DNA of 59,745 bases, the filler included. It is 5 parts of 5 records of this genome, joined end to end, with 100 filler letters (N's around TTAATTAATTAA, not from the genome) between each part and the next. Parts side by side here need not be neighbours in the genome. Positions count along the whole stretch, not along the records: positions 46,612 to 59,745 come from SRR31156797_3631; 4 more parts are not named here. One strand, written 5' to 3'. The notes beneath the pieces were generated by a model. The model was not told where the DNA came from and did no database searches. It saw only the letters and a program-made list of their open reading frames with translations. The translations under genes and the position numbers were made by a program. This document shows, in pieces, positions 15,906-59,745 of the stretch (the stretch's first letter is position 1; the number at the start of each line of letters is the position of its first letter).

Positions 15906-16005
15906 NNNNNNNNNNNNNNNNNNNNNNNNNNNNNNNNNNNNNNNNNNNNTTAATTAATTAANNNNNNNNNNNNNNNNNNNNNNNNNNNNNNNNNNNNNNN
16001 NNNNN
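15906..16005. other. Artificial contig linker
   Basis: N-run, TTAATTAATTAA (stops in all six frames), N-run. Confidence 0.99.
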
Positions 16006-25931: not shown

Positions 25932-26031
25932 NNNNNNNNNNNNNNNNNNNNNNNNNNNNNNNNNNNNNNNNNNNNTTAATTAATTAANNNNNNNNNNNNN
26001 NNNNNNNNNNNNNNNNNNNNNNNNNNNNNNN
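25932..26031. other. Artificial contig linker
   Basis: Same N/TTAATTAATTAA/N spacer. Confidence 0.99.
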
Positions 26032-38032: not shown

Positions 38033-38132
38033 NNNNNNNNNNNNNNNNNNNNNNNNNNNNNNNNNNNNNNNNNNNNTTAATTAATTAANNNNNNNNNNNN
38101 NNNNNNNNNNNNNNNNNNNNNNNNNNNNNNNN
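38033..38132. other. Artificial contig linker
   Basis: Same spacer. Confidence 0.99.
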
Positions 38133-46511: not shown

Positions 46512-46611
46512 NNNNNNNNNNNNNNNNNNNNNNNNNNNNNNNNNNNNNNNNNNNNTTAATTAATTAANNNNNNNNNNNNNNNNNNNNNNNNNNNNNNNNN
46601 NNNNNNNNNNN
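46512..46611. other. Artificial contig linker
   Basis: Same spacer. Confidence 0.99.
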
Positions 46612-46641
46612 TGAACCCTTGACCCCTACCGTGTCAGGGTA
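46612..46641 (-). other. tRNA-Val(GAC) 3' fragment, interpreted as the attachment site of the element
   Basis: Reverse complement TACC-CTGACAC-GGTA-GGGGTC-AAGGGTTCA gives anticodon arm (GAC), variable loop and start of the T arm; tRNA similarity stops 5' of the anticodon stem. Confidence 0.75.
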
Positions 46642-46769
46642 TCAAAAAACCGCATTTTATGCCCATAAATGAGGCTTTTTCTTACTATGAATACAATATG
46701 TTACATTGCTATATGACTCAGAAGTAAAAGGCGGGAAATAGGCAGAAACAGGGGGATATTTGAGACATT

Positions 46770-46790
46770 TAGTGACCATGGTAGTGACCA
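46770..46790 (+). repeat. Putative integrase arm-type binding sites
   Basis: Direct repeat TAGTGACCA at 46770 and 46782, about 130 bp inside the att core. Confidence 0.55.
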
Positions 46791-46987
46791 AATTGGCATG
46801 ATCAGAGGAACGCCAAAGAACCCAAAAGAATGAAAAGGAAAATAAAACATAGTGAGGTATTGACATGCAAATAATGATGCTTAATTTATCAGAGTAATAT
46901 ATAAAATTTTATTTTGTGAACCGGACCGGCACAGTTCTCTTCTGGGTGTATAGGGGCCGCTGGCGTTCATACCAAACCAAACCAGGG

Positions 46988-47019
46988 ATAGGTATGCATG
47001 CTTTGCGGCCTATTTTTTT
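46988..47019 (+). terminator. Leader terminator upstream of alpA/xis
   Basis: ATAGGT-a-TGCA/TGCG-GCCTAT hairpin followed by a T-run. Confidence 0.55.
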
Positions 47020-47041
47020 GGGAAAATTCAGGAGAAAACAT

Positions 47042-47230
47042 ATGGAAGAAAGAATTGAAAAACGCTGGTTAAATGTTGTTGAAACAGCTCAGTACATAGG
47101 CATTAGTCCACGTACTATCTATAACAGTACAGGTCCGAAAAGCAAAAAACCGTTTATTATTAAACCTAAACGTATAGGAAAACGTTTACTGTTTGATGTA
47201 AGAAAATTGGAGGCGTTCATGGAGCAGTAA
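47042..47230 (+). CDS. AlpA/excisionase-like HTH DNA-binding protein
   Basis: 62 aa 'WLNVVETAQYIGISPRTIYN...PKRIGKRLLFD..KLEAFM'; SD AGGAGA. Confidence 0.85.
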   Translation: MEERIEKRWLNVVETAQYIGISPRTIYNSTGPKSKKPFIIKPKRIGKRLLFDVRKLEAFMEQ

Positions 47231-47474
47231 TTTTTGCATCAATACACAAGAGAACAAAACAATTTAGGTGTTACCATAATAAATTAAATAATATTATTAT
47301 CCTCATATACGCTTATACTGCGGTTATACAGGGAGACCATGCACTAAACAAATAAATTAATGAAATTAATTGCAATAAAAATAATAAATTGGGTTGACAA
47401 ATACATTTTGATGATTACGTTATTATATGTAGTCAAAATATTTTTAACATTTACTTTATTATGAGGTACAGAAA

Positions 47475-47750
47475 ATGACAGAAAAAACACAAAATCAGGA
47501 AAAAATCAAACTTCAGGCTTTGGTTGATGCAACTCTTTATAATAGGTGTAAAATGATTGCCGCGCAGAAGGGGTGGACGATACCAGATCTAATAGAGGAT
47601 ATGATGGAAAATTATGTGGAGGCAGAAGAAGAAAAATGGTTGGATAAAATTTTTGCTGAACGGCTGGAGCAGGCACATGCAGGGGGTAAATTGGATGAAA
47701 TGCCAAATGTTAAACGGTATTATGAAGAATTATCAAAAAATAAAAATTAA
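47475..47750 (+). CDS. Ribbon-helix-helix-like regulator
   Basis: 'KIKLQALVDATLYNRCKMIAAQKGWTIPDLIEDMMENYV' fits an RHH pattern; SD GAGGT; TTGACA at 47394. Confidence 0.65.
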   Translation: MTEKTQNQEKIKLQALVDATLYNRCKMIAAQKGWTIPDLIEDMMENYVEAEEEKWLDKIFAERLEQAHAGGKLDEMPNVKRYYEELSKNKN

Positions 47751-47852
47751 ACACATTTAAAACTATTTAGAATTAAAATTTTATACATTCTCAATGCTGG
47801 CGGGAGTTTAACGGTTGGATAGCCGGTCCTAACGGATTTACACCTCTGAGAG

Positions 47853-47905
47853 AAGCCATGTGAGAGATCAAACGTAAATTTTTGATTTTTCGCATGGCTT
47901 TTTTT
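47853..47905 (+). terminator. Intrinsic terminator in the primase leader
   Basis: 20-bp stem whose three DNA mismatches are all G-U pairs on the + strand, followed by a T-run. Confidence 0.75.
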
Positions 47906-47932
47906 ATGCCTCATGACCGAGGAGTAGAGAAA

Positions 47933-48037
47933 ATGGAAACAGGATGGCCATATCAAAATTTACAGTTTGCCGAGGTGCCCTGTGGGGGGGTCAAGGGTAG
48001 CTGCCCACCAGCTACCTCAGCCTCGGCATTATCCTAG
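47933..48037 (+). CDS. Putative 34-aa leader peptide
   Basis: METGWPYQNLQFAEVPCGGVKGSCPPATSASALS*; SD GAGGAG at 47919; stop 3 nt before the primase SD. Confidence 0.35.
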   Translation: METGWPYQNLQFAEVPCGGVKGSCPPATSASALS

Positions 48038-48055
48038 AGTGGGAGGAAATTGAAA

Positions 48056-49891
48056 ATGAATAATGAACTAACAGATTTTACAACAGATAGGATCAGTGGA
48101 TGGCTAAAACTATGTCCACAGTGGATAAACTGGAAGCCGGTACAACGGGAAAACGGGAAAATCGATAAAATCCCCGTTGATCCGGTAACACTAGAACCGG
48201 CTAAAACGAATGATCGATCGACATGGACAAAATTTTTACCAGCCGTTGAATCCGCCAGAACTAATCAGCTCGGTATTGGTTTTGTTTTTACAGGTCGAGA
48301 CCCATTTGTTGGAATTGATTTAGATGATTGTTTCGAGAATGGGCAACCAAAATCATGGGCAAAAAATTTGGTTGATGGATTTGACAGCTATGCAGAGATT
48401 ACGCCATCCGGAAAAGGGCTGCATATCATTACACGTGCAAAGCTTCCGGGGAAACGGAGACGGAAGGGTAAAATTGAAACGTATGAATCAGGCCGATTTT
48501 TTACTGTGACCGGAAATAGTCTGATTCGGTATATGCGTGACGGTCAGGATGAAATGAATAATTTTTATCGTGATCATTTCGGGGAAGAACCAAAAACGGA
48601 AACAAAAAAACCTGTTGAATCACCTACACACACAGAGGATGAAATACTAAATGGTCTAAAAAACTATGCACCATTTCAGCGATTATTTGCCGGTGATATA
48701 GCAGGATATCCGAGTCAGAGTGAGGCGGATTTAGCGTTATGTAATATGATCGCTAAACGGACACATAACCCACAGGAGATAGATAGTATTTTCCGGGAAT
48801 CGGGGTTGTACAGGGAAAAATGGGATCAGATGCGGGGATCAGAAACATATGGTCAGATAACTATTGATAAATGTTTGGCCGATGCACCACAACTAACAGA
48901 AATACAAATTACAGAATCCAAAATCATCATTAAAACTATTGGGGAATTAATGACAACTAAATTCCCACCGGTGATTGATGTGATTAGCGGTGGAATTTTA
49001 CCGGAGGCAGGCGGTTTAATTTTAGCAGGTGAATCAGAGGCTGGAAAATCAATGCTATCAATGGAAATAGCTTTGAAATTAGCATTGGGCAGACAACTGT
49101 TTGACGGAAATTTACTAGTACCGAAAAAACGTAAAATTTTAGTTTTGCAGTGTGAAAATCCAGAGCCACAGGTGCAACAACGATTATATAGAATGATTAA
49201 CGGAATGAATATTTGTGTCGATGAATTAGAGGATAGAATAATTTTTGCAGACCCACAGACTAGATATGATTTGATGGGGGCGGGATGTATTGCAAACGTT
49301 ATTGATACAGTAAAACAGTGTGAGGCGGATGTTATGATTATAGATCCGCTATCGTCTTTTCATGTGATAGACGAGAATGATAATGGTCGGATGAGGACGG
49401 TATTGGATAACATCACGGCTATATCACGGCAAACGGGTTGTGCTGCAATCGTAATTCATCACTATGGAAAACCGACTGAAAAACGTGCGGATCAATACAG
49501 ATTACGTGGTGCCTCTAGTATCAAGGACTGGGCGGATAGCATCATTTCCGTGACTAGGAGAAAACATGAACACAAACAAATGTTCATGTTGCGATTTGAT
49601 AAGATTCGTCATGGGGTAAAACCGAAACCAATTTTATGTGAACGGGATGAAAATTTTTTATCGGTAGTGACGGAGGTGGAAATGCTGATCACACCAAAAC
49701 AAATACAAGATTTTTTAAAGAAGAATTTTCCTAGTGGAGCGGATACCAAAACTAAATTGTTAAACGCACTAAAAGGGGAATTTGATGTTAGTGATTCTAC
49801 AGCACATAGAGCTATCAATGAAGCGGTGGATATGAAATTTATTAGGGAATTAAAGGGCAAAGGAAAATCAAAAAAATATGTTTCTATGTAG
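48056..49891 (+). CDS. NrS-1-type primase-polymerase fused to AAA_25/RepA-like helicase
   Basis: 'GIGFVF...VGIDLDDC', 'YAEITPSGKGLHII', 'SQSEADLALC', 'FRESGLYREKWD'; Walker A 'GESEAGKS', Walker B 'MIIDP', 'IHHYGK', 'RGASS'. Confidence 0.88.
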   Translation: MNNELTDFTTDRISGWLKLCPQWINWKPVQRENGKIDKIPVDPVTLEPAKTNDRSTWTKFLPAVESARTNQLGIGFVFTGRDPFVGIDLDDCFENGQPKSWAKNLVDGFDSYAEITPSGKGLHIITRAKLPGKRRRKGKIETYESGRFFTVTGNSLIRYMRDGQDEMNNFYRDHFGEEPKTETKKPVESPTHTEDEILNGLKNYAPFQRLFAGDIAGYPSQSEADLALCNMIAKRTHNPQEIDSIFRESGLYREKWDQMRGSETYGQITIDKCLADAPQLTEIQITESKIIIKTIGELMTTKFPPVIDVISGGILPEAGGLILAGESEAGKSMLSMEIALKLALGRQLFDGNLLVPKKRKILVLQCENPEPQVQQRLYRMINGMNICVDELEDRIIFADPQTRYDLMGAGCIANVIDTVKQCEADVMIIDPLSSFHVIDENDNGRMRTVLDNITAISRQTGCAAIVIHHYGKPTEKRADQYRLRGASSIKDWADSIISVTRRKHEHKQMFMLRFDKIRHGVKPKPILCERDENFLSVVTEVEMLITPKQIQDFLKKNFPSGADTKTKLLNALKGEFDVSDSTAHRAINEAVDMKFIRELKGKGKSKKYVSM

Positions 49892-50085
49892 TCATGTGTT
49901 GAAACATGTGCGACTAGTCAAGGCGACGTGACTACATAATTTACTTAATGAATTCATATACTTATCATAGATCATGGCCCGTGACTATTCAAGGCGACAT
50001 GACCACATATAACACATTGAAAATACTACATAATTCTATGTGTTCATTGTTTCTCTATATATATGTTTTTGGTGAACACATAGAA
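49886..50085. repeat. Candidate replication origin (direct plus inverted repeats)
   Basis: 26-bp direct repeat (49912-49937 vs 49983-50008, 23/26 identical); inverted 12-mer (49886-49897 vs 49926-49937); perfect 13-bp inverted repeat (50034-50046 vs 50073-50085). Confidence 0.55.
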
Positions 50086-50199
50086 ACAGAAGAGAATATT
50101 TTTTTCATTTTCTGTGGTCTAAATATGAGAATTATAACCGGGAATATTTTTTCATTTTTTAGATGTCAGTAAAAATTTTTTGAACTATTAGATGGGGAT

Positions 50200-50415
50200 T
50201 TGGGTATGGAACATTGGAGTGATAATTTTAGTTTACATGAAGCAATGAAAATTGGAACTATCGCAGGTTATGAACCGGATGAGGATATATGGGACAAACG
50301 AGATTATATTATTGATCTAGCCTGCCATATCATAGGAATGGATCGATGCAGCCTAGGAACTGGATATGATGAGGTGAATAATTTTTTAGTGTGTGCTCGT
50401 GGTGCCGCTGGATGA
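50200..50415 (+). CDS. Hypothetical protein
   Basis: 71-aa ORF co-oriented with the element; no recognisable motif. Confidence 0.45.
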   Translation: MGMEHWSDNFSLHEAMKIGTIAGYEPDEDIWDKRDYIIDLACHIIGMDRCSLGTGYDEVNNFLVCARGAAG

Positions 50416-50446
50416 TAGCTACATTATAGCTACATTATAGCTACAT
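50415..50446 (+). repeat. 11-bp tandem repeat ATAGCTACATT (about 3 copies)
   Basis: atagctacatt atagctacatt atagctacat. Confidence 0.85.
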
Positions 50447-50555
50447 CGGATGAAATCTGACTCCAAGCACGGCTTGTCTTAGGCCAAGTGTCTCAAAATG
50501 ATACACTTATTAGCAATAGTGTCGAAATATTCGGCAGTTTTCAGTGAGGTGAATT

Positions 50556-50915
50556 ATGACCAATGCAACTTATTTTAACCAAACAGAGAAAATCGACGGT
50601 AGGACGCGTCAGGCACGTGAGGTGAAGAGGTTGAAGGCAGCCCTTACCGAGCATCCCGTTAGTACCGCAAGGGCGATCCTGATGGATTCTGTGGCCCGTA
50701 ACACTTTGATTGAACAACAGATCTATGAGACTGCGATGGGTCAGGGTATGGTTAACGAAAAAGGAAAAATTAATCCATTGATCGAAAAAACCTTGTTGAA
50801 ATATCAAAACGCCTGTAGAACTGCCCTGACACAATTTCTAGCATTGGGAGGGAAACCCGGAAATGATCCAGATGAAAATATTTTTGACGATATATTCGAG
50901 AATGATGAAGATTAG
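50556..50915 (+). CDS. Putative terminase small subunit
   Basis: 119 aa, helical, 'INPLIEK.LLKYQN' segment and acidic tail; SD GAGGTG; lies upstream of terL. Function inferred from position. Confidence 0.5.
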   Translation: MTNATYFNQTEKIDGRTRQAREVKRLKAALTEHPVSTARAILMDSVARNTLIEQQIYETAMGQGMVNEKGKINPLIEKTLLKYQNACRTALTQFLALGGKPGNDPDENIFDDIFENDED

Positions 50916-51380
50916 GTTAGATTAGGTTAAATATGCGGAATCAGATTATGAACACAATAAAACCTATTAATACCCACTGTGACATGGTAGGGGTCAATAT
51001 ATTACCATTAGCTAGACATGATAACGATTATGTCACTGCGAAACCATATAAGTTATAGATATCATTGAAAGGTCTCATAAGCTTGATTATGTAAACTCGC
51101 TATGTTTCTGTGGGTTTAAGCGTGAAAGAATAGCATCATAATACGTCTAAACTAATATATTGTGTGTCATTATTTTATGCCATTTATAGTTGTAACAAAC
51201 ATGTTATATAGTGTTAAATATCGAAGCAGTGGAAAACGGTAAAAGAATAGGTTTGATTATGTTTAATCATGTTCAAGGGCATTTTGAGGTTATGGGGGAG
51301 CCCGACCTGCGAAAACATTTTTTGAAATTTTTTTTTGTAGTACCCCACGCGTAAAATGTAAAAAATAAAAAATTAATAAA

Positions 51381-51536
51381 ATGGAAATACAAAAACCAAA
51401 ATACATGATTAAACATATAGAAATTATTGAAAAATTAGAAAATGAAAAATATTTTATTGATGTGACTAGCAGAAAATATGAACATAAAGCCAGAATTTGT
51501 GGCTATATTGATAAAAAAATGAAAAATGGAGCATGA
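51381..51536 (+). CDS. Possible 51-aa hypothetical protein
   Basis: MEIQKPKYMIKHIEIIEKLENEKYFIDVTSRKYEHKARICGYIDKKMKNGA*; no clear SD. Confidence 0.25.
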   Translation: MEIQKPKYMIKHIEIIEKLENEKYFIDVTSRKYEHKARICGYIDKKMKNGA

Positions 51537-51617
51537 TTTTACATAGATATAGGGCAGATATAATATAGATATACCCGATATAGTACCCATATATACCCGC
51601 AATACCTACCACATACA

Positions 51618-51660
51618 GAGAGCCGAGAGCCCCCATGTGACAGCAGCATTATGGAGGCTC
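51618..51660 (+). promoter_or_regulatory. Com box plus SD-sequestering hairpin upstream of terL
   Basis: GAGAGCC-GA-GAGCCCC (51618-51633); GAGCCCCCAT (51627-51636) pairs with ATGGAGGCTC (51651-51660), which contains the SD. Confidence 0.75.
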
Positions 51661-51664
51661 AACA

Positions 51665-53479
51665 ATGGCAACCGCACAAGTAAAAAAATCTAATACAAAA
51701 TCAAAATTACAATCTTGGCAGGAAAATAATCCACAAGCATTTTTACAGTGGATAGAGGATATTCAACCCAGAATACTAGTCAATTCTCGTTATGAAATTT
51801 TTTCCCCTACCGAAAAACAATTAAAACTTATCAATGAAATTTTAAAACCTTCCGAAAATCAAATTAATATTCCCGATGATGAACCAGTAAAACCTATCGG
51901 AACCAGATCACATAACGCCAGAAAACCCAGACCATCACGAAAATCAAAAATTATTGGCGATGATAATATACAAAGCCGAAAATCATCATTTGCACACTCA
52001 CTCTCATTATTGATCCAACCTCGAAGACATGGCAAAAGTTCAATTCTCTGTTTAATCTGTCTGTGGTTATTTACCAGCCGCAAAAATTTAACCATTCAAT
52101 TGCTAGGAAACACTGAATCACATTGTCAGAGAGTTCAATTTTCAACCGTCAAAAAAATCATAGCAAATACCCCAAAACTGAGAAAATTGATTAATGAAAA
52201 AGATGAATATGTTTTTGAAATTTTCTTTCCGGCATGGGGGAACGTAATTCAGCGCAGCCCCGGGAACAACCCCAGCACTAGTTTCGGCCAGAAAATAGAC
52301 GTTTTATGGGTTAGTGATTTACACGCCTGTCAGGATCTGAGTCCGTTCAATGCATTGCAGGGCAGTTTAATAGACTCCAAAGACAGCCTACTTTTAATAG
52401 ACAGCAATGTAGACGCTAAAAACGGCCATGTTCATTTGATCCAGCAAGAGGCGGAAAACGATCCATCAATTTTTTGCAATCATACATTCTATCCTGACAT
52501 CGATAGTTACTGTGAAAATGCTCCCCCATGGATTAGTAGGACCAAAGCAAAAAGATTACAAAAAACATCATTAGAGGCAGATTTTAGGCGGGATATTTTA
52601 GGTTTAAGATCCGATGCTAAAAACGCATTATTTCCTGCCGATGTTATCGAATCATGTAAATCCCCGTATAAATGTCCGGTTGAATCCATCGAATCATTAA
52701 CACAGGGCAGGAGCTATCGGGTTGGAGGGGGTTTAGATCGATCAAAATCCCTGCTAGGCTCGGCAATGGGGAAAGACAATACAATATGGACGGTAGTATT
52801 AAAAATTGCTGGTGTAGAAGATATGGAACCGGAATTTTATGTTTTGAATCAGGTGAACGTGGTTCCAAATACGGCATCAAATATTAAAAAAATTATATTG
52901 AAGGATCACAAACGGTATAAACTCGATAATGCGGTTTTAGAAAATTATGAGACAATGGATTTGATCCCATGGTTGGAAAATCAAAAAATTCCATGTGAAT
53001 TAGTATCGCCACATAGCACGGTTCAAAATAGCGCATTCCCTGAATTAGGCCGAATCGTTAGGGAAGGGCGTTTGAAATTTCCCGCAGATAATAAACGTTT
53101 GATTTCTGAGATGGGAACGTTTTCTTATACCGCAGCTAGACGTGGGGAAGGGTATAGCTTCGGACATAGTAGTAAATCACAACATGATGATACTGTTTTT
53201 TCATTGTTGTGGAGTGTTTGGGCTTTACGTAGTCAAATCATGAATTTATACACGCTGTCAAATATAATGTGCAATTCTAAACGACCAAACAGGCATATGT
53301 GCTACCTAATGGGTGGTAACATGGAATTATTTTGCTCCGAACAATGTCATGCGGCACAGGAGGTCAGGGATATGCACAAGCAATTTTTGCAGTATCAGAT
53401 GGACTCCGATGTAACATTGAGCCAGTTTTATATAAATTATGTTAAACTAAGCGGAGCCAAAATTTATCAGGCGATATAA
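51665..53479 (+). CDS. terL: Terminase large subunit
   Basis: Walker A 'QPRRHGKS'; RNase H-like nuclease motifs 'GGGLDRS' and 'HDDTVFSL'; upstream of the portal. Confidence 0.85.
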   Translation: MATAQVKKSNTKSKLQSWQENNPQAFLQWIEDIQPRILVNSRYEIFSPTEKQLKLINEILKPSENQINIPDDEPVKPIGTRSHNARKPRPSRKSKIIGDDNIQSRKSSFAHSLSLLIQPRRHGKSSILCLICLWLFTSRKNLTIQLLGNTESHCQRVQFSTVKKIIANTPKLRKLINEKDEYVFEIFFPAWGNVIQRSPGNNPSTSFGQKIDVLWVSDLHACQDLSPFNALQGSLIDSKDSLLLIDSNVDAKNGHVHLIQQEAENDPSIFCNHTFYPDIDSYCENAPPWISRTKAKRLQKTSLEADFRRDILGLRSDAKNALFPADVIESCKSPYKCPVESIESLTQGRSYRVGGGLDRSKSLLGSAMGKDNTIWTVVLKIAGVEDMEPEFYVLNQVNVVPNTASNIKKIILKDHKRYKLDNAVLENYETMDLIPWLENQKIPCELVSPHSTVQNSAFPELGRIVREGRLKFPADNKRLISEMGTFSYTAARRGEGYSFGHSSKSQHDDTVFSLLWSVWALRSQIMNLYTLSNIMCNSKRPNRHMCYLMGGNMELFCSEQCHAAQEVRDMHKQFLQYQMDSDVTLSQFYINYVKLSGAKIYQAI

Positions 53480-53586
53480 ATTATTTAAAAATGTTCTAAT
53501 GTATAAATAAATGATATTAAAACGTTGTAAATGCCATAAAAATTTAGTAATTAGGATCTTAAAAGTAAAATAATAAAAAATAATGC

Positions 53587-53616
53587 TTGACAAGGTTATT
53601 TCAGTTATGGTATGGT
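53587..53616 (+). promoter_or_regulatory. Sigma70-like promoter for the com-portal operon
   Basis: TTGACA (53587) N18 TATGGT (53611) with TGn extension. Confidence 0.55.
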
Positions 53617-53652
53617 GATATGCAACGGGGGAATAATTAATTAGGATGAAAC

Positions 53653-53820
53653 ATGGTTTATAAACTTGAATATCGTTGTTATGCCTGTGGTAGGCTACTA
53701 GGCATAGGTCTGTTGGCTGGTGGCTGGCTGGACGTTAAATGCCGGAGGTGTAACCGTTTGAACCATATTTATGAAGGTAGTTGTAGCATAGCAACAGTTA
53801 GTAATATCAATATAATTTAA
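53653..53820 (+). CDS. com: Mu Com-family zinc-finger regulator (55 aa; absent from the ORF track)
   Basis: MVYKLEYRCYACGRLLGIGLLAGGWLDVKCRRCNRLNHIYEGSCSIATVSNINII*, matching 'RCxxCxRLL...KCxRCxxxN'; SD AGGA. Confidence 0.85.
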   Translation: MVYKLEYRCYACGRLLGIGLLAGGWLDVKCRRCNRLNHIYEGSCSIATVSNINII

Positions 53821-53843
53821 ATATTTAGTAGTAACAATTTTCA

Positions 53844-53899
53844 GAGCCCTTCTAGAGGCCATTTATTACGTTATCAATACGTGATTTTTGGCCTTTTTT
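53844..53899 (+). terminator. Com-box-overlapping terminator/attenuator upstream of the portal
   Basis: GAGCCC-TTCTA-GAGGCC (53844-53860) overlaps the 5' arm of hairpin AGGCCA..ATTACGT/ACGTGAT..TGGCCT, followed by a T-run. Confidence 0.65.
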
Positions 53900-53920
53900 A
53901 TTGCCCCGAGGAAAAATCTA

Positions 53921-55258
53921 ATGCTTTGGAATAGTACAGCAAAAACAGTAGTGCAAGAGATGTTTAGAGATGCACAGGAGAAAGCGGCACAGGAACGGAA
54001 AAACGATACAATAAAACGTTTGAGTTATTATCATGATGAACAGGAATCTTACATAGTAGAACTATTGGAAAAACATCATGCAGACCCAGACAAATTTGAA
54101 CCGGTTTTTTTCAATGTGGTGAAAAAAATAATAAATCAATTATCAATGGTGTATTTAGCCGATGCACAGAGGATAGTTGATGGTACGGATCAGGATAAAC
54201 AAATCTATGCAGATATAATTGATTCATCCAGCCTAAATCCAAAAATGAAAACCGCCAGTCGATATACAAAATTATTGAAAACTATTTTGCTGAGACCTGT
54301 ATGGCGAAAAGGTAAAATGGATTTAGATCTACTATCAGGTGATGTTTTGAATGTGATATGTGGAGATACACCTGAAATATTGGAGCAGGTTATGGTTACA
54401 CACTATCCACAATCAGGTGAGAGTAAAGATATAGAATATAGTTTGTGGTCTGACGAAACTTATCATAGATTAGATTACAATGGCAATATACTACAGTCAG
54501 AAGCAAATCCATATCATACTATACCATTTGTACCATTGTGGGATTCATACCCTGCCACGGGTTCATTTTGGGCTTCTGGTGGCAATGATCTAATCTCTAT
54601 CCAGTCCACAATAAACCAGAAATTGACGGATCTGATGCTTGTGATTGAGTATCAGGGATTTGGTGTTCCTGTTGCTAAAGGTTTGAAAGATGGTGGTAAA
54701 TTAACGGTAGGACCAAATTCAGCAGTGGAAATTGAAGATCCAAACGGAAGTTTTACATATGAGAAAACAAATGCCCCAATACAAGCAATTTTAAATTCAA
54801 TAGATTTTCTCATCAAAAATGCGGCTGTTACTAATGGTCTACCTGCATCTAGTTTATCCGTAAAGCCTACACAGGAGTCAGGACTAGCTAGGATATCCGG
54901 AAACCGGGAATTAGAGGAATTACGCCGTGATCAAATCGGACTATTTTCCACTTATGAGAAAAGATTATTTTCCATGTTTCGTACAGTTTGGAATGTTCAT
55001 AATCCATCTAAAAAAATCTCTGAAAACGCAAGACTAAAATTAGATTTTTTCGATCCTAAGCCTGTCATGAGTCCAGATAAACAGACTGAGCAGTGGGAAC
55101 GGGAACTAGAAATGGGAACAATATCAAGAGTGGAAATCTTGATGCTTAAGAACCCGGATTTATCCAAGGAGGACGCACAAAAAAAACTAGAAGAAATACA
55201 AAACGAAAACAAAAATTTTAACCTTTCGCCAGACCAAGGCGTAAAAATGGAGGAATAA
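53921..55258 (+). CDS. Phage portal protein (SPP1 gp6-like)
   Basis: 'YYHDEQ', 'FNVVKKIINQ', 'NPYHTIPFVP', 'LISIQ..IN', 'QESGLA'; SD GAGGA before ATG 53921; position in the head module. Confidence 0.82.
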   Translation: MLWNSTAKTVVQEMFRDAQEKAAQERKNDTIKRLSYYHDEQESYIVELLEKHHADPDKFEPVFFNVVKKIINQLSMVYLADAQRIVDGTDQDKQIYADIIDSSSLNPKMKTASRYTKLLKTILLRPVWRKGKMDLDLLSGDVLNVICGDTPEILEQVMVTHYPQSGESKDIEYSLWSDETYHRLDYNGNILQSEANPYHTIPFVPLWDSYPATGSFWASGGNDLISIQSTINQKLTDLMLVIEYQGFGVPVAKGLKDGGKLTVGPNSAVEIEDPNGSFTYEKTNAPIQAILNSIDFLIKNAAVTNGLPASSLSVKPTQESGLARISGNRELEELRRDQIGLFSTYEKRLFSMFRTVWNVHNPSKKISENARLKLDFFDPKPVMSPDKQTEQWERELEMGTISRVEILMLKNPDLSKEDAQKKLEEIQNENKNFNLSPDQGVKMEE

Positions 55259-55260
55259 AA

Positions 55261-55647
55261 ATGATAGACGAAAAATCCGTCAAAAAAGACGAAAAAATTG
55301 AAAACGAAAAAAACCAGACTATGCAGGAACACGTCACCGAAATGGCGGAAAACATGATTCCCAAAAGTCGATTTGATCAAGTCAACCAACAGAAAAAAGA
55401 CGCATTAGCTGTATTAAATTCTGTTGCCGATGAGCTGGCAAATGATGTGCCGAAAGATATGCAGGACCTAATTCCGGACCTAGCGCCAGCGGAAAAAATA
55501 ATTTGGATCAGACAGGCTATCAAAAAAGGGATCTTCAATGAAAATTTGGAAAACGGTCTGGACAGTAAACGACCAACCGGAAAAGTACCGATTGATCTAA
55601 CAGGTATGAGCCCCATGGATATGATGCGCCATGGGTATAAACAGTAA
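55261..55647 (+). CDS. Capsid scaffolding protein
   Basis: 'MIPKSRFDQVN' motif, charged and helical, between portal and MCP. Confidence 0.7.
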   Translation: MIDEKSVKKDEKIENEKNQTMQEHVTEMAENMIPKSRFDQVNQQKKDALAVLNSVADELANDVPKDMQDLIPDLAPAEKIIWIRQAIKKGIFNENLENGLDSKRPTGKVPIDLTGMSPMDMMRHGYKQ

Positions 55648-55680
55648 AAATTAAAAAATATTAAAAATTAGACCGTTTGT

Positions 55681-55719
55681 GAGTGCCTCTGAGCGCCAGA
55701 TATTCGGCACATGGAGGTA
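55681..55719 (+). promoter_or_regulatory. Com box plus SD-sequestering hairpin upstream of the major capsid gene
   Basis: GAGTGCC-TCT-GAGCGCC (55681-55697); TGCCTCTGAGCGCC pairs with GGCACATGGAGGTA (12/14 including G-U), burying SD GGAGGT. Confidence 0.78.
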
Positions 55720-55725
55720 GTACAA

Positions 55726-56664
55726 ATGGCAATTAGTTTAATTGAACAAGCGAAATTAAAAACAGATCCTTTACAGCGGGGGATTATCATGTGTTTTCCG
55801 GAATCTAGTCCGGTTTTGGAGGACATTCCGTTCATGAATGTATCTAGTGACACGTATAAATTCAATAGGGCGGATACATTACCACGTTCAGATTTTAGGG
55901 CTATCAACGAATCGTACACTGAGGGAACTAGCGGCATAGACCATGTAACGGAATCTTTGACTATTAGTGGCGGTTTCTCTGATGTGGATAGAGTGTTAGT
56001 GAAAACCCAGGGCAACATAAACGATTTAAGGGCGGTACATGACGCATTAAAAGCGAAATCCTGCGCTTTGAAATGGCAAAAAACATATTTCAAAGGCGAT
56101 GTCGAATCCAGTCCAAAAGAATTTGATGGGCTGCAATCCCGTTTAATCGGTGACCAGTTGATAGATGCCGGATCTGCTAGTGGTGGTGACGCTCTATCCC
56201 TAGCAAAACTGGACGAAACGATTGACGCTGTGGACGGTAGCCCAGATGCACTATACACAAACAAAACTATGCGTAGACTGTTGACTGTAGCCGCTAGAAC
56301 TACAACTGTTGGTGGAAATATCGCCTACACTCTGGATCAGTTTGGCCGCAGAGTTACCACCTACAATGATGTTCCCATTCGCATTATTGAAGAAGATGAA
56401 AATGGTGATCAGGTCCTTGGATTCGATGAGGCTGCACCCGGAGGCGGATCTAGTGTGTGTACCAGTATGTATGCCGTGAAATTCGGTTTAGGAACTCACT
56501 GTTGGGGTCTGCAATGTGGCGAGATGGATGTGATTGATATGGGGTTATACAGTGGTGGGACCAAATATCGTACACTGATTGAATGGATTTCAGGGTTCAC
56601 CATCGGGCATAACAAATCTGCAGCACGTTTGCGCGGTATCAAAAACGCTGATGTAGTGGCGTAA
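55726..56664 (+). CDS. Major capsid protein (HK97 fold inferred)
   Basis: 312 aa; 'SPVLEDIPF', 'FRAINE', 'GGFSDVDR', 'FKGD...PKEFDGL..R', 'AARLRGI'; follows the scaffold. Confidence 0.85.
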   Translation: MAISLIEQAKLKTDPLQRGIIMCFPESSPVLEDIPFMNVSSDTYKFNRADTLPRSDFRAINESYTEGTSGIDHVTESLTISGGFSDVDRVLVKTQGNINDLRAVHDALKAKSCALKWQKTYFKGDVESSPKEFDGLQSRLIGDQLIDAGSASGGDALSLAKLDETIDAVDGSPDALYTNKTMRRLLTVAARTTTVGGNIAYTLDQFGRRVTTYNDVPIRIIEEDENGDQVLGFDEAAPGGGSSVCTSMYAVKFGLGTHCWGLQCGEMDVIDMGLYSGGTKYRTLIEWISGFTIGHNKSAARLRGIKNADVVA

Positions 56665-56847
56665 AATTTAGGTTTCACGGGCCACCTGATCTGATCTGGC
56701 AATATATTTTTTTTCGATGTGGTTTTTCGACGGCATTATTCCCACAGAAGAAAAAAACATATTGTGGCCTATTTCGCAGAAAGATCCGATCCGCATTTAG
56801 AGGAGTGCGTTAAAAATCTTTATGATTTTCCTTAGATGTTAGGGCTA

Positions 56848-56897
56848 GGGACATGGGCGGGTTCTCCTCCCGCACCAACCATGTCCCAACATTTTTT
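56848..56897 (+). terminator. Hairpin/terminator after the capsid gene
   Basis: GGGACATGG-GCGGG/CCCGC-accaa-CCATGTCCC followed by a T-run. Confidence 0.55.
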
Positions 56898-56914
56898 AAC
56901 GGGGTTCCATATTT

Positions 56915-57301
56915 ATGGCACGGATATTTCACGGAGTTCCATATCCCAACAAAATTAAGAAAAAACGGAAAAAATTAAAAAAATACAATGAACGGGACCG
57001 GATGCCATATAGAGAAAGACGATGTGGTAACTATATGATATGTTTGGAAAATGCTGCTCGATTTGATCTAGTTTTAGACTGTACAGACTGCCCGAATTTG
57101 TGTATACCGTCGCCACAACCGGATGATGGCTATACAGCAATGATTCTGGAGGACGCAACATGCTGTTCAAGACTACTAAAAGCGATTTTCTACCCGCAGG
57201 CATGGAAACTGGAGGAACGTGAACGGCAACAGGAAAAAAACAAAGAAAATATTAAAAAATTAGAGGATGTATCTATTTCTGAAATCGAGTGGTATGGTTA
57301 A
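56915..57301 (+). CDS. Hypothetical Cys-rich basic protein
   Basis: 128 aa; Lys/Arg-rich N-terminus; C-x5-C and CxxC motifs. Confidence 0.6.
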   Translation: MARIFHGVPYPNKIKKKRKKLKKYNERDRMPYRERRCGNYMICLENAARFDLVLDCTDCPNLCIPSPQPDDGYTAMILEDATCCSRLLKAIFYPQAWKLEERERQQEKNKENIKKLEDVSISEIEWYG

Positions 57302-57315
57302 TTTTACAATGCAAA

Positions 57316-58005
57316 CTATTTATCTAGTAAATCATTCTTAAATTCATTTAGATTCATTTCAATTTTCTGTTCAAATTTATCATCTCTTTCATTATTATTA
57401 TATTTAACGAGGTCAGGCTGATTTTTTCTCCCCATTTTAGTCTCCCATTCTATATTGATTATGTTATCGTCTTTATGTATAGCAAAAAATCTAATATATG
57501 CTTTAGGTTTATTTAATCTAATATTGGTTCCTTCCCTATAAGCATCAAGACATATTTCAAGTTCCTTTTCCTTAAGAATAATTTTCCATTCACTAGGGGT
57601 TAATCCGAACTTAAAATCTTTACATTTTGGCAAAACATCGTTTTTTAAAATATCTTCTATTGTTTCTTCTTTAGGCTCTTTTTCCTCCATCATAATCTTT
57701 CTCCTTTCTAAAGCATTACCCATTTTTGATTGACGTCTAACGTCAGTGTTGATTAATATTTTATCAACAACAATCTGTTTTTTTGCCTGTGGGTTCGTTT
57801 TAAAATTCACAATCAAGCCATGCTTTGATGCAATTTCTTGGATCTCATCAAGACCACTCAATACAACTTGATCAGACTTTGATATTCCAAGTTTTGTGGC
57901 GATAGAGAGGAATTGTTCGTATAGCCTGTCAAAGTCTTTGTTGTCTTCATTGCATTCTGCACATGAGATACACATGTTTGTTGGATATAGTTCAAATTGT
58001 AGCAT
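57316..58005 (-). CDS. Hypothetical accessory (cargo) protein
   Basis: 229 aa, strong SD GGAGGAGG; the only convincing antisense gene in the element. Confidence 0.7.
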   Translation of the reverse strand: MLQFELYPTNMCISCAECNEDNKDFDRLYEQFLSIATKLGISKSDQVVLSGLDEIQEIASKHGLIVNFKTNPQAKKQIVVDKILINTDVRRQSKMGNALERRKIMMEEKEPKEETIEDILKNDVLPKCKDFKFGLTPSEWKIILKEKELEICLDAYREGTNIRLNKPKAYIRFFAIHKDDNIINIEWETKMGRKNQPDLVKYNNNERDDKFEQKIEMNLNEFKNDLLDK

Positions 58006-58530
58006 TTTTTGACCTCCTCCGTTAAAGGTTAATGTTTAAAATACTCCTGCTTTTCCCGACGAATCATGTCTCATCTCAAGCGCCGTGTTCTGATGATTTT
58101 CCTTATATCAGCGCATAAATGAAATTGCAAGAAAAAAATCGAAATCCGGCAAAATTTCTTGAAATAGACCATAAAATAACACCCTAAGCTATAAAATGCT
58201 AGTATATGGCTTGTAACAAACTATAATCGGAGATTATCAACTATGTAATTTTTTACTAATCACTCTATTCTAATTGTTGTATCGATACTAGAAAACACAA
58301 TTATGGTTTACTAAGAATTGGATTTACAAGAAACTTATATTAACCCTATGCCAGACACACGAGCCTAGTCGTCTAGTAGTCCTATACCATACCCATTCAT
58401 TAAAATTTTTCGTTGATCCTGACCATTCCTCATAAGTCGTGTGGACACTCAAACACATAATATAAACTCAATTTAGCAGAACAAGCAGATTAGAAGCAGA
58501 AGGGCCGCATTAAAAATATATAAATAATGC

Positions 58531-58559
58531 TCGACAACAATAAAGCCAATGCTTATATT
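58531..58559 (+). promoter_or_regulatory. Putative promoter for the RHH-integrase operon
   Basis: TCGACA-N17-TATATT. Confidence 0.45.
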
Positions 58560-58594
58560 GTTAGAAATATTAAAGCAGAACGGAGGCAGAGAAG

Positions 58595-58783
58595 ATGCAA
58601 AAAAACATAGTTTTTAGAGTTGATGAAAATTTACGGGCAAATTTCAAGGTGGCTGCGGCCATGGAGAGAAAAACCATGGCGGAAATTATGACAGCATTTG
58701 TCGTCAAATTTGTTGAGGAAACGTTTGATAGAGAGGAGGCAGACCATGGGAGTGACGGTCAGAGAAAATCTAGGAAAAGATAA
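58595..58783 (+). CDS. ParG/CopG-like ribbon-helix-helix protein
   Basis: 'KNIVFRVDENLRANFKVAAAMERKTMAEIM..FV'; SD GGAGG. Confidence 0.75.
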   Translation: MQKNIVFRVDENLRANFKVAAAMERKTMAEIMTAFVVKFVEETFDREEADHGSDGQRKSRKR

Positions 58784-58804
58784 AAAATAAAAAGGAGAAA
58801 TATT

Positions 58805-59722
58805 ATGGGGATTTTAGCTGAATGCCCGTTGTGTCACCAAAAGCAGGCAACTAAAAATAAAAAATGTAAATGTGGATATGATCTGGCAAAGGGCAAGCGA
58901 TCCAAGAAAGTTAAATTTTGGGTATCGTATTATTTGCCCGATGAAAATGGAAAACGAAAACAAAAACGTGAACCAGTTAAAGGCTTAGACGTTGACTCCT
59001 ATTCCATAGAGGATGCCAAATTGTTTGAAGCAAAGAAAAAAATTTTAAAGAAAGAGAAAAAGATATTTGATGTCAAAGAAGTGTCCACAACAACTTTTTC
59101 TGAGCTGGCAGAATGGTATTTGTCATTGGAAAAAGTTAAGGGACTTGCATCCTATTGGGTAATAGAATTATCACTTAAAAAATTTAACGCCGTTTTTGGT
59201 CACTATCAGGTAGTGACCATTAAAGCTGCCGACTTGGAAAATTATCAAGAAAAGAGAAAAAAAGCTGGAAAAGCTCCAGCAACGATAGATCATGAAATTG
59301 GAAAAAGTCGAACCATGATCCGAAAAGCTTTTGATAATGGCCTTGTGGATGGTGAAGTTTTGCGGACATTCAACAAAGTGAAAAACACATTGAAACCTGG
59401 ATCAGATGTTAGAGACCGAATATTATCAAAGGCTGAATTTAATAAGCTTATGGAACATGCAGCGCCGTATATAAGACCGGTAATAGCCATGGGATATTAT
59501 ACGGGCATGAGACGTGGGGAAATTCTGGGCTTAACCTTGGATAGACTAGATCTAAAAAAACGAATGATCTATTTGGAAAAGGAAGATACCAAAGATAATG
59601 AACCTAGAAACATTCCCATTTGTAATAAGCTGTATAAAATTTTAATTGAGGACGTTGACACTATCCGTAAAGCGGAAGAGGACAATACAGTTTTCCTGTA
59701 TAGAAAAAGACCTATCGAATAA
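58805..59722 (+). CDS. int: Tyrosine integrase with N-terminal zinc ribbon; C-terminal catalytic part missing
   Basis: 'CPLC...CKCG'; core-binding region 'APATIDHE'; catalytic 'YYTGMRRGEIL.L' and 'TKD..PR.IP'; stops before the HxxR and Tyr motifs. Confidence 0.85.
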   Translation: MGILAECPLCHQKQATKNKKCKCGYDLAKGKRSKKVKFWVSYYLPDENGKRKQKREPVKGLDVDSYSIEDAKLFEAKKKILKKEKKIFDVKEVSTTTFSELAEWYLSLEKVKGLASYWVIELSLKKFNAVFGHYQVVTIKAADLENYQEKRKKAGKAPATIDHEIGKSRTMIRKAFDNGLVDGEVLRTFNKVKNTLKPGSDVRDRILSKAEFNKLMEHAAPYIRPVIAMGYYTGMRRGEILGLTLDRLDLKKRMIYLEKEDTKDNEPRNIPICNKLYKILIEDVDTIRKAEEDNTVFLYRKRPIE

Positions 59723-59745
59723 GGTTAGAGTTTGAGAGCGGAGCG

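Follow-up and report, generated by a model that had tools for sequence, protein, structure and literature searches.

A Com-type zinc ribbon and candidate Com boxes in the head operon of a small integrative element

The window analyzed here is a stretch of 59,745 nucleotides (59.7 kb) made of five contigs joined by N linkers, and its last contig (46612-59745; 13.1 kb) is a small integrative element that codes for a capsid of its own, with terL, portal, scaffold and MCP (Table 1). A primase-helicase, an integrase and an excisionase-type HTH protein (PF12728, 25.3 bits, just under the cut-off of 27) are also encoded. Pfam and PHROG profile searches recognized no tail genes on the element, and neither head-tail connector genes nor terS were recognized there; its contig carries neither Mom nor a methylase. 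Relatives of the element were found in MAGs of Desulfatiglandales and 'Deltaproteobacteria', with 58-72% identity for TerL and 45-57% identity between the scaffold-like protein and the product of the gene at the same position. For portal and MCP, the ATG codons fitting the N-termini of the relatives (MLWNS and MAxxL, respectively) were taken as starts, and the portal start thereby lies 22 nt 3' of the U-run of the terminator described below.

Table 1. Positions of head genes, candidate Com boxes and predicted RNA structures, counted along the window.
Feature	Position	Strand	Characteristics
terL-leader Com box GAGAGCC-GA-GAGCCCC	51618..51633	+	only site in the window fitting the N2 form of the SELEX consensus
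terL translation-inhibitory hairpin (predicted)	51627..51660	+	fold -15.1 kcal/mol, z -3.1
Large terminase (terL)	51665..53479	+	terminase large subunit: PHROG 9, E 4e-8; PHROG 2, E 8e-8
Sigma-70-like promoter match 5' of com	53587..53616	+	TTGACA-18-TATGGT with TG extension; best + strand match, 10/12
com (C4 zinc ribbon, 55 aa)	53653..53820	+	PF10122 and PHROG 6417
Junction Com box GAGCCC-TTCTA-GAGGCC	53844..53860	+	kept in 10/10 com-carrying relatives
Intrinsic terminator	53854..53899	+	hairpin 53854-53896 plus U6; fold -19.0 kcal/mol
Portal	53922..55258	+	PF05133 SPP1_portal, E 4.5e-11
Scaffold-like protein	55261..55647	+	weak PHROG 194 match, E 0.008
Capsid translation-inhibitory structure (predicted)	55673..55729	+	-27.3 kcal/mol, z -4.66
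Capsid-leader Com box GAGUGCC-UCU-GAGCGCC	55681..55697	+	sole N3 match in the window
Major capsid protein (MCP)	55726..56664	+	PHROG 212 (major head protein), E 2e-70; PF20911 GP7, E 4e-18

A preliminary description of this DNA had located all of its listed features correctly, among them a Com-type C4 zinc finger within the head module. The deduced protein shows the cysteine pattern CxxC-N17-CxxC and matches PF10122 (Zn_ribbon_Com) with an E value of 1.3e-5 and 25.0 bits, which exceeds the gathering score of 22.9, as well as PHROG 6417 ('translational regulator') with an E value of 5e-5. It can be aligned with Com-like genes located between terL and portal in the relatives. At 25 bits, barely above the cut-off, it is distant from the Haemophilus sputorum Com employed for SELEX, and three of the six relatives' Com proteins tested (L006, L010 and L027) fell under the PF10122 cut-off.

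Candidate Com boxes and predicted RNA structures

According to Nowacka et al. (2019; PMC6483171), SELEX with Com from H. sputorum yielded the consensus NGAGNNCC(N)2-3GAGNNCCNN, so that the motif given in the preliminary description is in print and derived from selection. On both strands of the window, GAGNNCC-N2-3-GAGNNCC has exactly two matches when about 0.09 are expected (N2 form, 1 versus 0.05; N3 form, 1 versus 0.04). Both are located on the sense strand, 47 nt (terL) and 45 nt (capsid) before the start codons, and the Poisson probability of finding at least two given 0.09 (P = 0.004) takes account neither of this strand position nor of the distance of less than 50 nt to head-gene starts. 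The strict bipartite form is thus restricted to the terL and capsid leaders, while single GAGNNCC half-sites occur at chance level in the window (70 observed, 68.2 expected).

In the terL leader, the second half-site forms the 5' arm of the predicted hairpin and the GGAGG at 51653-51657 lies, partly paired, in its 3' arm. When the box was blocked, the folding energy of the leader changed from -18.1 to -6.6 kcal/mol and the probability of the Shine-Dalgarno (SD) sequence being unpaired rose from 0.20 to 0.43. Only a mini stem of 2 bp is available to this box, which is also a perfect tandem GAGAGCC repeat. In the case of the capsid leader, none of 200 shuffled sequences folded as stably as the native one. 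Here the anti-SD CCUC of the box pairs with GGAGG (55713-55717) and the AUG is paired too; alternatively, a hairpin scan indicated that the box can fold as GUGC[CUCUGA]GCGC, with a 4-bp stem and a C-NNN-GA hexaloop. Blocking the box reduced the energy to -6.4 kcal/mol and raised the probability of an unpaired SD from 0.00 to 0.50. The predicted folds therefore agree with the earlier suggestion that the boxes at terL and MCP overlap SD-hiding hairpins, and with the box constrained the SD became more accessible in both leaders; the MCP AUG, however, remained paired (probability unpaired, 0.01).

The portal-side hairpin is an intrinsic terminator directly 3' of com and not a mask of a ribosome site. 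The second half-site of the junction box, AGAGGCCA, makes up the 5' base of this terminator, and the junction box can also form a mini hairpin GCC[CUUCUAGA]GGC. With GAG-N1-CC half-sites and spacers of 3-7 nt, junction boxes fall outside the SELEX consensus. The variant box that the preliminary description had assigned to the portal is present, and it is the best-conserved of the sites, but translational unmasking is unlikely at a terminator, where transcription antitermination would be the likely act. As the portal start follows the U-run at a distance of only about 22 nt, which leaves no room for a promoter of their own, portal, scaffold and MCP should be transcribed only by read-through, and some mechanism for it is required. 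A consensus terminator scan omitted the junction hairpin, probably because its internal loops break the stem/loop rule.

Conservation in relatives and occurrence in other lineages

Ten distinct com-carriers were compared, namely the element of the window and L001, L005, L006, L009, L010, L025, L027, L030 and L038. In all ten, GAGCCC-N3-7-GAGGCC is found just 3' of com, its second half is the 5' base of a hairpin (-17.5 to -27.0 kcal/mol) and a U-run follows; the inner stems differ and the box is invariant. RNAalifold analysis of the junction terminator gave 12 outer pairs, two of them with compensatory changes. The junction box is absent from all nine com-less relatives, and in eight of these the gap between terL and portal measures 6-10 nt; the com-carriers probably form one clade, and this contrast of ten with nine therefore amounts to about one evolutionary event. 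Leader sites, either as the box or as a hairpin of 4 bp with C-N2-3-GA as its loop and the anti-SD CCUC as its 5' arm, are present in 6/9 terL and 6/10 MCP leaders and missing from the other three and four, so that the junction site alone is universal. In these 19 leaders, the hairpin motif has 8 matches (0.46 expected), and in some sites of relatives the loop is closed by U-A and not by C-G.

A Com-like gene directly 5' of a box was also encountered in four head-module lineages (L031, L032/L102, L095 and L120) that differ in their portal families. In all of them the complete second half-site of 7 nt is the 5' base of a terminator (-17.9 to -32.4 kcal/mol), which is followed by scaffold-MCP, protease-scaffold-MCP, protease or portal. 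Only the Com-like ORF of L031 passes the Pfam cut-off (28.9 bits); those of L032 (21.4), L095 (18.0) and L120 (19.4) are below 22.9, and the ORF of L102 matches the Com HMM built in this analysis and not the Pfam model. In L134, box and terminator do not overlap, and two Com-bearing loci, L033 and L037, lack a box within the sequence examined.

In a reverse scan, the strict box GAGCGCC-N3-GAGCGCC was searched across viral contigs and neighbouring ORFs were then compared with the Com HMM. Com-HMM ORFs were obtained at 12 of 117 loci (10 distinct ORFs, 7 of them above the Pfam gathering score), always on the same strand and with the box either within their 3' end or no more than 81 nt beyond it, whereas none was obtained at the 118 loci matching a scrambled control pattern (Fisher P = 1.7e-4). 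In one case, usable as a positive control, Com and box were followed by Mom (PF25680, E 4e-73); in five, a DNA methylase followed.

Proposed control of the head operon and alternative readings

Control of head genes by Com at the RNA level, and not of a DNA-modification gene, was the central claim of the preliminary description and is, by comparison of sequences, a well-supported reading: the motif was defined a priori and is statistically rare, com and box co-occur in the relatives, the arrangement recurs in unrelated head modules and the reverse scan points in the same direction. Both the binding of Com at the boxes and the direction of its effect are what we infer. Our preferred reading, for which we estimate a probability of about 0.6, is that Com would block the terminator on the nascent RNA and open the ribosome sites of terL and of the capsid gene. 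The head operon would then be gated at three RNA sites by the element's own Com-type zinc ribbon. Com may bind the nascent junction box, which probably takes the form of a small hairpin, GCC[loop]GGC; binding would keep the second half-site from the terminator stem and let RNA polymerase read on. In the terL and MCP leaders, Com would shift the balance towards either the small hairpin or an unpaired box, thereby freeing the ribosome site. Such control would act as a delay or threshold switch, with capsid proteins being formed only after Com has accumulated. Com boxes on a terminator and on SD-hiding hairpins suggest a hitherto undescribed mechanism for timing the production of phage capsids.

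Com might also bind the boxes with an opposite or other effect, stabilizing the terminator or the hairpins (repression or autoregulation) or protecting or processing the 3' end of terL-com. A terminator hairpin at the 3' end of an mRNA is a common stabilizer, throughout the family the box lies next to the 3' end of com itself, and none of our computations fixes the sign of the effect. We consider this unlikely, since the second half-site lies inside the stem, and Com, which according to PMC6483171 binds duplex RNA weakly and prefers loop-presented CC(N)2-3GAG, should compete with that stem; portal, scaffold and MCP, with no space for a promoter behind the U-run, also call for some means of read-through, and the Com known from Mu is an activator that frees the ribosome site of mom (PMC6483171).

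We regard it as no more probable that the structures function independently of Com, with a leaky terminator setting the terL:portal stoichiometry, leaders opened by translational coupling, another role for the zinc ribbon and boxes that are by-products of GC-rich stems. Terminators are common inside late operons, several head-module Com-like ORFs are under the Pfam cut-off, and the first junction half-site is unpaired, so that its conservation may have other causes. However, this half-site lies outside every stem and is invariant while the inner stems have diverged, the strict motif was defined separately by SELEX (PMC6483171), and the reverse scan, which included a true com-mom pair, clearly exceeded its control.

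It is quite improbable that the Com of a helper phage, and not the element's own, triggers the switch, and in the sequences compared we found no support for this suggestion of the preliminary description. The element may depend on a helper, as it has no recognizable tail genes, and box formats common to several lineages make cross-talk conceivable. Yet the element has its own com; com abuts the terL stop codon in the relatives, and here it is preceded by a good promoter-like site, which is a consensus match only, since such sites overall occur at chance level (51 found, 50.9 expected).

Slightly less probable still are boxes that are recognized on DNA by a zinc-finger transcription factor or by terminase (pac/cos). 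The boxes consist of short direct repeats and precede late genes, the element has no identified terS or pac site, and Ogr/Delta proteins are small C4 zinc proteins that act as DNA-binding activators of P2/P4 late promoters. However, Com was the only Pfam family matched by the element's protein at E <= 0.01, with no match to Ogr_Delta. Without exception the boxes are found on the sense strand, at the positions of covarying RNA stems; for MCP and portal, 45-80 nt separate the box from the start codon and no promoter-like match follows the box, and unrelated phages keep the box format despite different sequences and terminases. A chance match, although single half-sites do occur at chance level, is a negligible explanation given the rarity of the bipartite motif, with both copies in leaders, its conservation in relatives and the outcome of the reverse scan.

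Comparison with known systems

In Mu, the Com zinc finger binds a hairpin adjoining the translation-inhibition structure of mom (PMC6483171). The element shares with this system a small C4 zinc ribbon of PF10122, com directly upstream of its target, the bipartite GAGNNCC-N2-3-GAGNNCC motif and a site overlapping a structure that hides start signals, and its MCP site GUGC[CUCUGA]GCGC is comparable to the Mu 19-mer hairpin with a C-NNN-GA hexaloop (PMC6483171). In contrast to Mu, where a single site controls a DNA-modification gene, the element has three sites at terminase, portal and capsid genes, the best conserved of them lies on an intrinsic terminator and not on a ribosome-site hairpin, and its junction half-sites are of the GAG-N1-CC type with spacers of 3-7 nt.

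RNA-binding antiterminators such as BglG, SacY and LicT act at RAT by holding an antiterminator hairpin that has nucleotides in common with the 5' arm of a terminator. The element is predicted to follow this logic, with a small hairpin and a terminator sharing nucleotides in the leader of the regulated genes, where a protein bound to the upstream hairpin would stop the terminator from forming. However, BglG, SacY and LicT are CAT-PRD proteins and Com is an unrelated zinc ribbon, whose gene directly precedes the regulated genes on one transcript, in the context of a phage head operon; by this analogy, the element would function in a similar way to these systems without belonging to them.

In Mu-like prophages, com is reportedly coupled to a DNA methyltransferase, a finding attributed to Drozdz et al. 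in 2012. Four com-methylase loci of our data set (L093, L119, L138 and L151) resemble the element in having a Com-like ORF with a strict box in its 3' end, here 22-38 nt before the start of the next gene. Their targets are DNA-modification genes, the genes overlap or abut and a terminator is missing, none of which applies to the element. Also, an Aeromonas phage record contains an unannotated Com-like ORF 5' of a 'DNA methylase'.

The element and its head operon

The Com head operon lies on the final contig of the window, positions 46612-59745 (13,134 bp), where a Com-family gene and boxes of the Com format at three sites of the operon were found; each feature was located where the preliminary description had placed it. 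The five contigs are joined by four linkers of N44, TTAATTAATTAA, N44 (15906-16005, 25932-26031, 38033-38132 and 46512-46611), so that features are neighbours only within a segment, and more than one organism may be represented. The segments differ strongly in G+C content (about 38, 54, 42, 26 and 37%), and the separate 26% G+C contig (38133-46511) is nearly filled by two very large minus-strand ORFs of 970 and 1574 aa.

Features of the element contig, with positions along the whole window
Feature	Position	Remarks
Excisionase-type HTH ORF		first listed gene of the contig; PF12728, 25.3 bits, just under cut-off
Primase-polymerase/helicase	48050-49891	
Small unknown ORFs		between primase-polymerase/helicase and terL
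terL-leader box	51618-51633	
terL	51665-53479	
com	53653-53820	55-aa zinc-ribbon ORF
Junction box	53844-53860	between com and portal
Portal	53922-55258	PF05133
Scaffold-like gene	55261-55647	
MCP-leader box	55681-55697	
Major capsid protein (MCP)	55726-56664	
Two unknown ORFs		between MCP and integrase
Tyrosine integrase	58805-59722	

No terS was recognised on the element contig, no match to Mom or a methylase was obtained among the ORFs tested on it, and Rfam and tRNA searches of it gave 0 matches (E ≤ 1 for Rfam). In gene content the element would fit a candidate capsid-forming satellite of the cf-PICI type, which a helper mobilises: it has an integrase, a regulator, a replication module, and capsid and packaging genes of its own, with no tail gene recognised on a contig that may be incomplete at both ends. 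Nearest relatives occur in Desulfatiglandales and 'Deltaproteobacteria' MAGs and in IMG/VR contigs of 12-17 kb; scans of genome contigs and of metagenomes yielded 4 loci each. In com-mom switches of the Mu type, the com target is a gene for a DNA-modification enzyme (Mom or a methyltransferase) that overlaps or abuts com, whereas here the next gene encodes a portal, and because the defining target is absent the element is not a com-mom operon.

Window Com scored 25.0 bits against PF10122 (gathering cut-off 22.9; E 1.3e-5) and by this threshold belongs, marginally, to the Com family. Three of the six relatives scored were above the cut-off (L001, L005, L025) and three below (L006, L010, L027). 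The arrangement CYAC-N17-CRRC (CxxC-N17-CxxC) fits the four-Cys pattern for proteins of about 40-80 aa, all four Cys are invariant in an alignment of six Com sequences, and window Com also matched PHROG 6417 ('translational regulator'). Membership would further entail sequence-specific binding to RNA with CC(N)2-3GAG in a hairpin loop, and sites that match this form are present. A PDB sequence search with the Com alignment returned nothing significant, the best hits being zinc ribbons of RNA polymerase subunit 10 (E 0.033).

Boxes and predicted structures at the three sites

The site that the preliminary description had given for Mu Com proved accurate, as it matches the motif NGAGNNCC(N)2-3GAGNNCCNN derived by SELEX with the Com finger of Haemophilus sputorum, according to Nowacka et al. 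(2019; PMC6483171). Single GAGNNCC half-sites were found at chance frequency (70 observed, 68 expected), so that only the bipartite form is informative. In the 59.7 kb, both strands included, the bipartite motif occurred once with N2 spacing (0.05 expected) and once with N3 spacing (0.04 expected) and nowhere else. Two such matches have a probability of about 0.004 before position is counted in, a statistic that is meaningful because the motif was defined beforehand. They lie on the sense strand, 47 nt 5' of the terL ATG and 45 nt 5' of the MCP ATG. Just 5' of the terL-leader box, GATATA(G/C)CC-like repeats (GATATAGGG, GATATACCC, GATATAGTACCC, ATATATACCC) form an AT-rich array (51540-51600), a possible operator or a possible pac or terS site.

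In its spacing, the junction box differs from the SELEX motif, and the Com protein used for SELEX is distant from window Com. The variant box claimed to precede the portal is indeed present, but its hairpin is a predicted intrinsic terminator directly after com, with the portal ribosome site outside it: the hairpin consists of AGAGGCCA...UGGCCUUU and an inner stem (-19.0 kcal/mol), and U6 comes next, 22 nt before the portal ATG. Such a hairpin and U-run directly 5' of the portal, with no room for a separate promoter, is the arrangement expected for antitermination and recurs in 10 of 10 relatives. A Com-like gene lies between terL and portal in 10 distinct elements (window, L001, L005, L006, L009, L010, L025, L027, L030 and L038, several of them re-found under other ids), and all 10 carry GAGCCC-N3-7-GAGGCC 3' of com. 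In each, a U-run comes after a hairpin of -17.5 to -27.0 kcal/mol that has the second half-site, AGAGGCCA, as its 5' base, and thus box and terminator 5' arm share nucleotides. The 9 com-less relatives have no box, and in 8 of these 9 terL and portal are 6-10 nt apart, a contrast that amounts to about one evolutionary event since the com-carrying elements are probably one clade. Box and outer stem are invariant among the 10, as is the first half-site, which lies outside any stem, and the inner stems vary between members. Of the proposed covariation across homologues, RNAalifold on a MAFFT alignment recovered 12 outer pairs, 2 with compensatory changes; formal counts are limited to these outer pairs, as the inner stems were too variable for alignment with MAFFT. 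The junction box can also fold as GCC[C...AGA]GGC, whose GGC is common to the terminator. A terminator-like consensus was at chance over the element (10 found, 8.4 expected), and the junction terminator was missing from the list of that scan.

Portals of the window, L001, L005, L006, L009, L010, L025 and L030 are only 28-38% identical, more divergent than the terL (58-72%) and MCP (57-83%) proteins of the same elements; despite this divergence, junction box, terminator base, ribosome site and first codons (MLWNS) are conserved. Judged from these sequences, module exchange seems to have a boundary at the regulatory junction.

At terL and MCP, the boxes had been described as overlapping hairpins that hide the Shine-Dalgarno (SD) sequence, and this held for both leaders in predicted folds, with the MCP AUG paired as well. 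In the terL leader, the second half-site is paired with the GGAGG-bearing region (-15.1 kcal/mol, z -3.1). In the MCP leader (-27.3 kcal/mol, z -4.7), GGAGG is paired with CCUC of the box, and the AUG lies in an outer helix. When the box was constrained to be single-stranded, the free MCP fold of -27.5 kcal/mol rose to -6.4 and the probability of an unpaired SD from 0.00 to 0.50, and for terL the values changed from -18.1 to -6.6 kcal/mol and from 0.20 to 0.43. The SD was thus freer in both leaders, but the MCP AUG remained in a weak residual helix.

As an alternative, the MCP box can fold into GUGC[CUCUGA]GCGC, in which a C-NNN-GA hexaloop tops a stem of 4 bp, and in predicted folds this mini hairpin and the inhibitory structure are mutually exclusive. 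The SELEX study (PMC6483171) describes the same hairpin architecture for the Mu mom site, which it reports to overlay partly a translation-inhibition structure. Such an overlap of a Com-site hairpin with a start-sequestering structure is present in the MCP leader and in part in the terL leader; the terL box forms a mini stem of only 2 bp, so this site fits less well.

Among relatives, a box or hairpin was found in 6 of 9 terL leaders and, the window included, in 6 of 10 MCP leaders (window, L008, L010, L015, L025, L030), and it was not found in the other 3 and 4, respectively. The terL-leader hairpins, in which the anti-SD is the 5' arm, include ACCU[C-N2-3-GA]AGGU (L001, L030, L038), the arm-swapped AGGU[CCAGA]ACCU (L005) and UUCU[CCUUGA]AGAA (L025). 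Across the 19 leaders the hairpin motif occurred 8 times against 0.46 expected; the generic form (4-bp stem, loop C-N2-3-GA), with 75 matches on the two strands of 92.7 kb, is too common for use alone.

Association of Com with the box in other lineages

Com and the box are associated across unrelated elements. A profile scan with the Com alignment also recovered unrelated phages, and in five or more head-module lineages, which differ in portal family, com is followed by a box on the 5' arm of a terminator and next by head genes. The second half-site forms, with its full 7 nt, the 5' base of a predicted terminator (-17.9 to -32.4 kcal/mol) in L031, L032, L095, L102 and L120. Two further Com loci, L033 and L037, had no box within the DNA examined.

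Gene order at Com loci of other lineages
Locus	Order
L031	portal, com, box, scaffold, MCP
L032	com, two strict boxes, protease, scaffold, MCP
L035	terL, portal, com, 270-aa ORF (PHROG 'unknown function'), MCP, strict box on SD-sequestering hairpin, next gene
L095	portal, com, box/terminator, protease
L102	portal, com, boxes/terminator, protease, scaffold, MCP
L120	terL, com, box/terminator, 154-aa ORF, portal

In the reverse direction, IMG/VR was scanned with the strict box GAGCGCC-N3-GAGCGCC, which gave at least 117 loci (1.07 Mb), and Com-like ORFs were detected with an HMM built from 15 Com cores. Such ORFs were present in 12 (10 distinct) of the 117 loci listed, and in none of 118 listed control loci obtained with a composition-matched pattern of reversed half-sites (1.06 Mb; G+C 0.63 vs 0.61; Fisher P = 1.7e-4). 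Among the matches listed, all Com ORFs were on the strand of the box, which lay within the ORF 3' end or at most 81 nt beyond it. With the Pfam Com model, 7 of the 10 distinct ORFs scored above cut-off, 2 had Com as best match below it and 1 had no match. By their next genes, six of the 10 listed are of the known type, one being followed by Mom (PF25680, E 4e-73), a true positive control, and five by DNA methyltransferases; L095, L102 and L120 are of the head-module type and L134 was placed in neither.

A second reverse scan, with the box of the family itself, gave 119 stretches (118 new loci and the previously known L009). A match to the Com HMM was found in 11 of the 118, beside the box and on its strand in 10 (6 re-found contigs and the new loci L311, L313, L331 and L388) and away from it in L341. 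The com 3' end of L331 and L388 contains the box, ahead of an ORF without annotated start, and in L311 a row of several GAGCCC and GAGGCC half-sites (199-275) follows a Com-like ORF at the contig edge. Bipartite boxes occur as tandem pairs in L032 (4866-4935), L102 (2733-2777) and L095 (minus strand, about 2620-2660), only the second overlapping the terminator, which might indicate cooperative or stepwise loading of Com.

Searched by tblastn against cultured phages, Com of the window, L032 and L095 gave no match; L120 Com matched four Aeromonas phage records (E 4e-3), all of the known com-before-methylase type, so that this search gave no terminator-type example from a cultured phage. In four cultured Aeromonas phages an unannotated Com-like ORF (L277 1441-1524, PQ314494.1) lies directly 5' of an annotated 'DNA methylase' and appears to be a com gene of the known type that annotation has missed.

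Proposed control of head genes by Com

The preliminary description had proposed Com as a switch acting on the RNA of terL, portal and capsid genes. As modelled from sequence, the structures that share box nucleotides would block transcription at the junction and translation at terL and MCP, and we give a probability of roughly 0.6 to the reading that Com gates the head operon by read-through at the junction and by opening of ribosome sites at terL and MCP. Com would bind the nascent box, as small hairpin or single strand, and would keep the competing stem from forming, whereupon RNA polymerase would read through into portal, scaffold and MCP genes and the terL and MCP ribosome sites would be exposed. 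Because com is upstream of the terminator, early transcripts would stop 3' of com, and read-through would set in as Com builds up, resulting in a built-in delay or threshold. The terL and MCP leaders would work like Mu com-mom, and the junction presumably like RAT-type antiterminators.

That Com binds these boxes with some other outcome is unlikely. We consider it equally improbable that the structures form and act independently of Com. The earlier suggestion that Com of a helper phage acts as trigger is compatible with the other readings as an add-on, and with com inside the operon itself we regard it as quite improbable. Boxes serving as DNA-level sites are least probable of these readings, given sense-strand matches that coincide with predicted RNA stems.

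It is about an even chance that Com-type zinc ribbons have a role beyond translational activation of mom and methylase genes: a divergent, widespread branch in head operons of phages and satellites would be a hairpin-binding transcription antiterminator, in some elements also an activator of translation, and would time the synthesis of portal, scaffold and capsid. To our knowledge, Com has so far been regarded as a curiosity with a single target gene, as activator of Mu mom, and a search of largely open-access literature found no paper that links Com to antitermination or to the control of capsid genes. If correct, phages and capsid-forming satellites would have reused this very small zinc finger and its RNA box to gate their core structural genes, mostly via an intrinsic terminator, making Com a new class of phage antiterminator beside N, Q and put RNA. 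It would also provide an annotation rule for the numerous small zinc-ribbon ORFs of head modules that lack an explanation and a compact orthogonal protein-RNA switch, and with a protein of 55 aa and RNA sites of 17-60 nt the reading is directly testable.

In relatives, com abuts the terL stop and encodes an N-terminal extension of 20-25 aa with a KDWT motif; window com is without this extension, and about 170 AT-rich nt (53480-53652) separate it from terL. A promoter-like consensus was at chance over the element (51 found, 50.9 expected), and the terL-com gap holds the best match on the strand, TTGACA-18-TATGGT, which might uncouple the supply of Com from terL.
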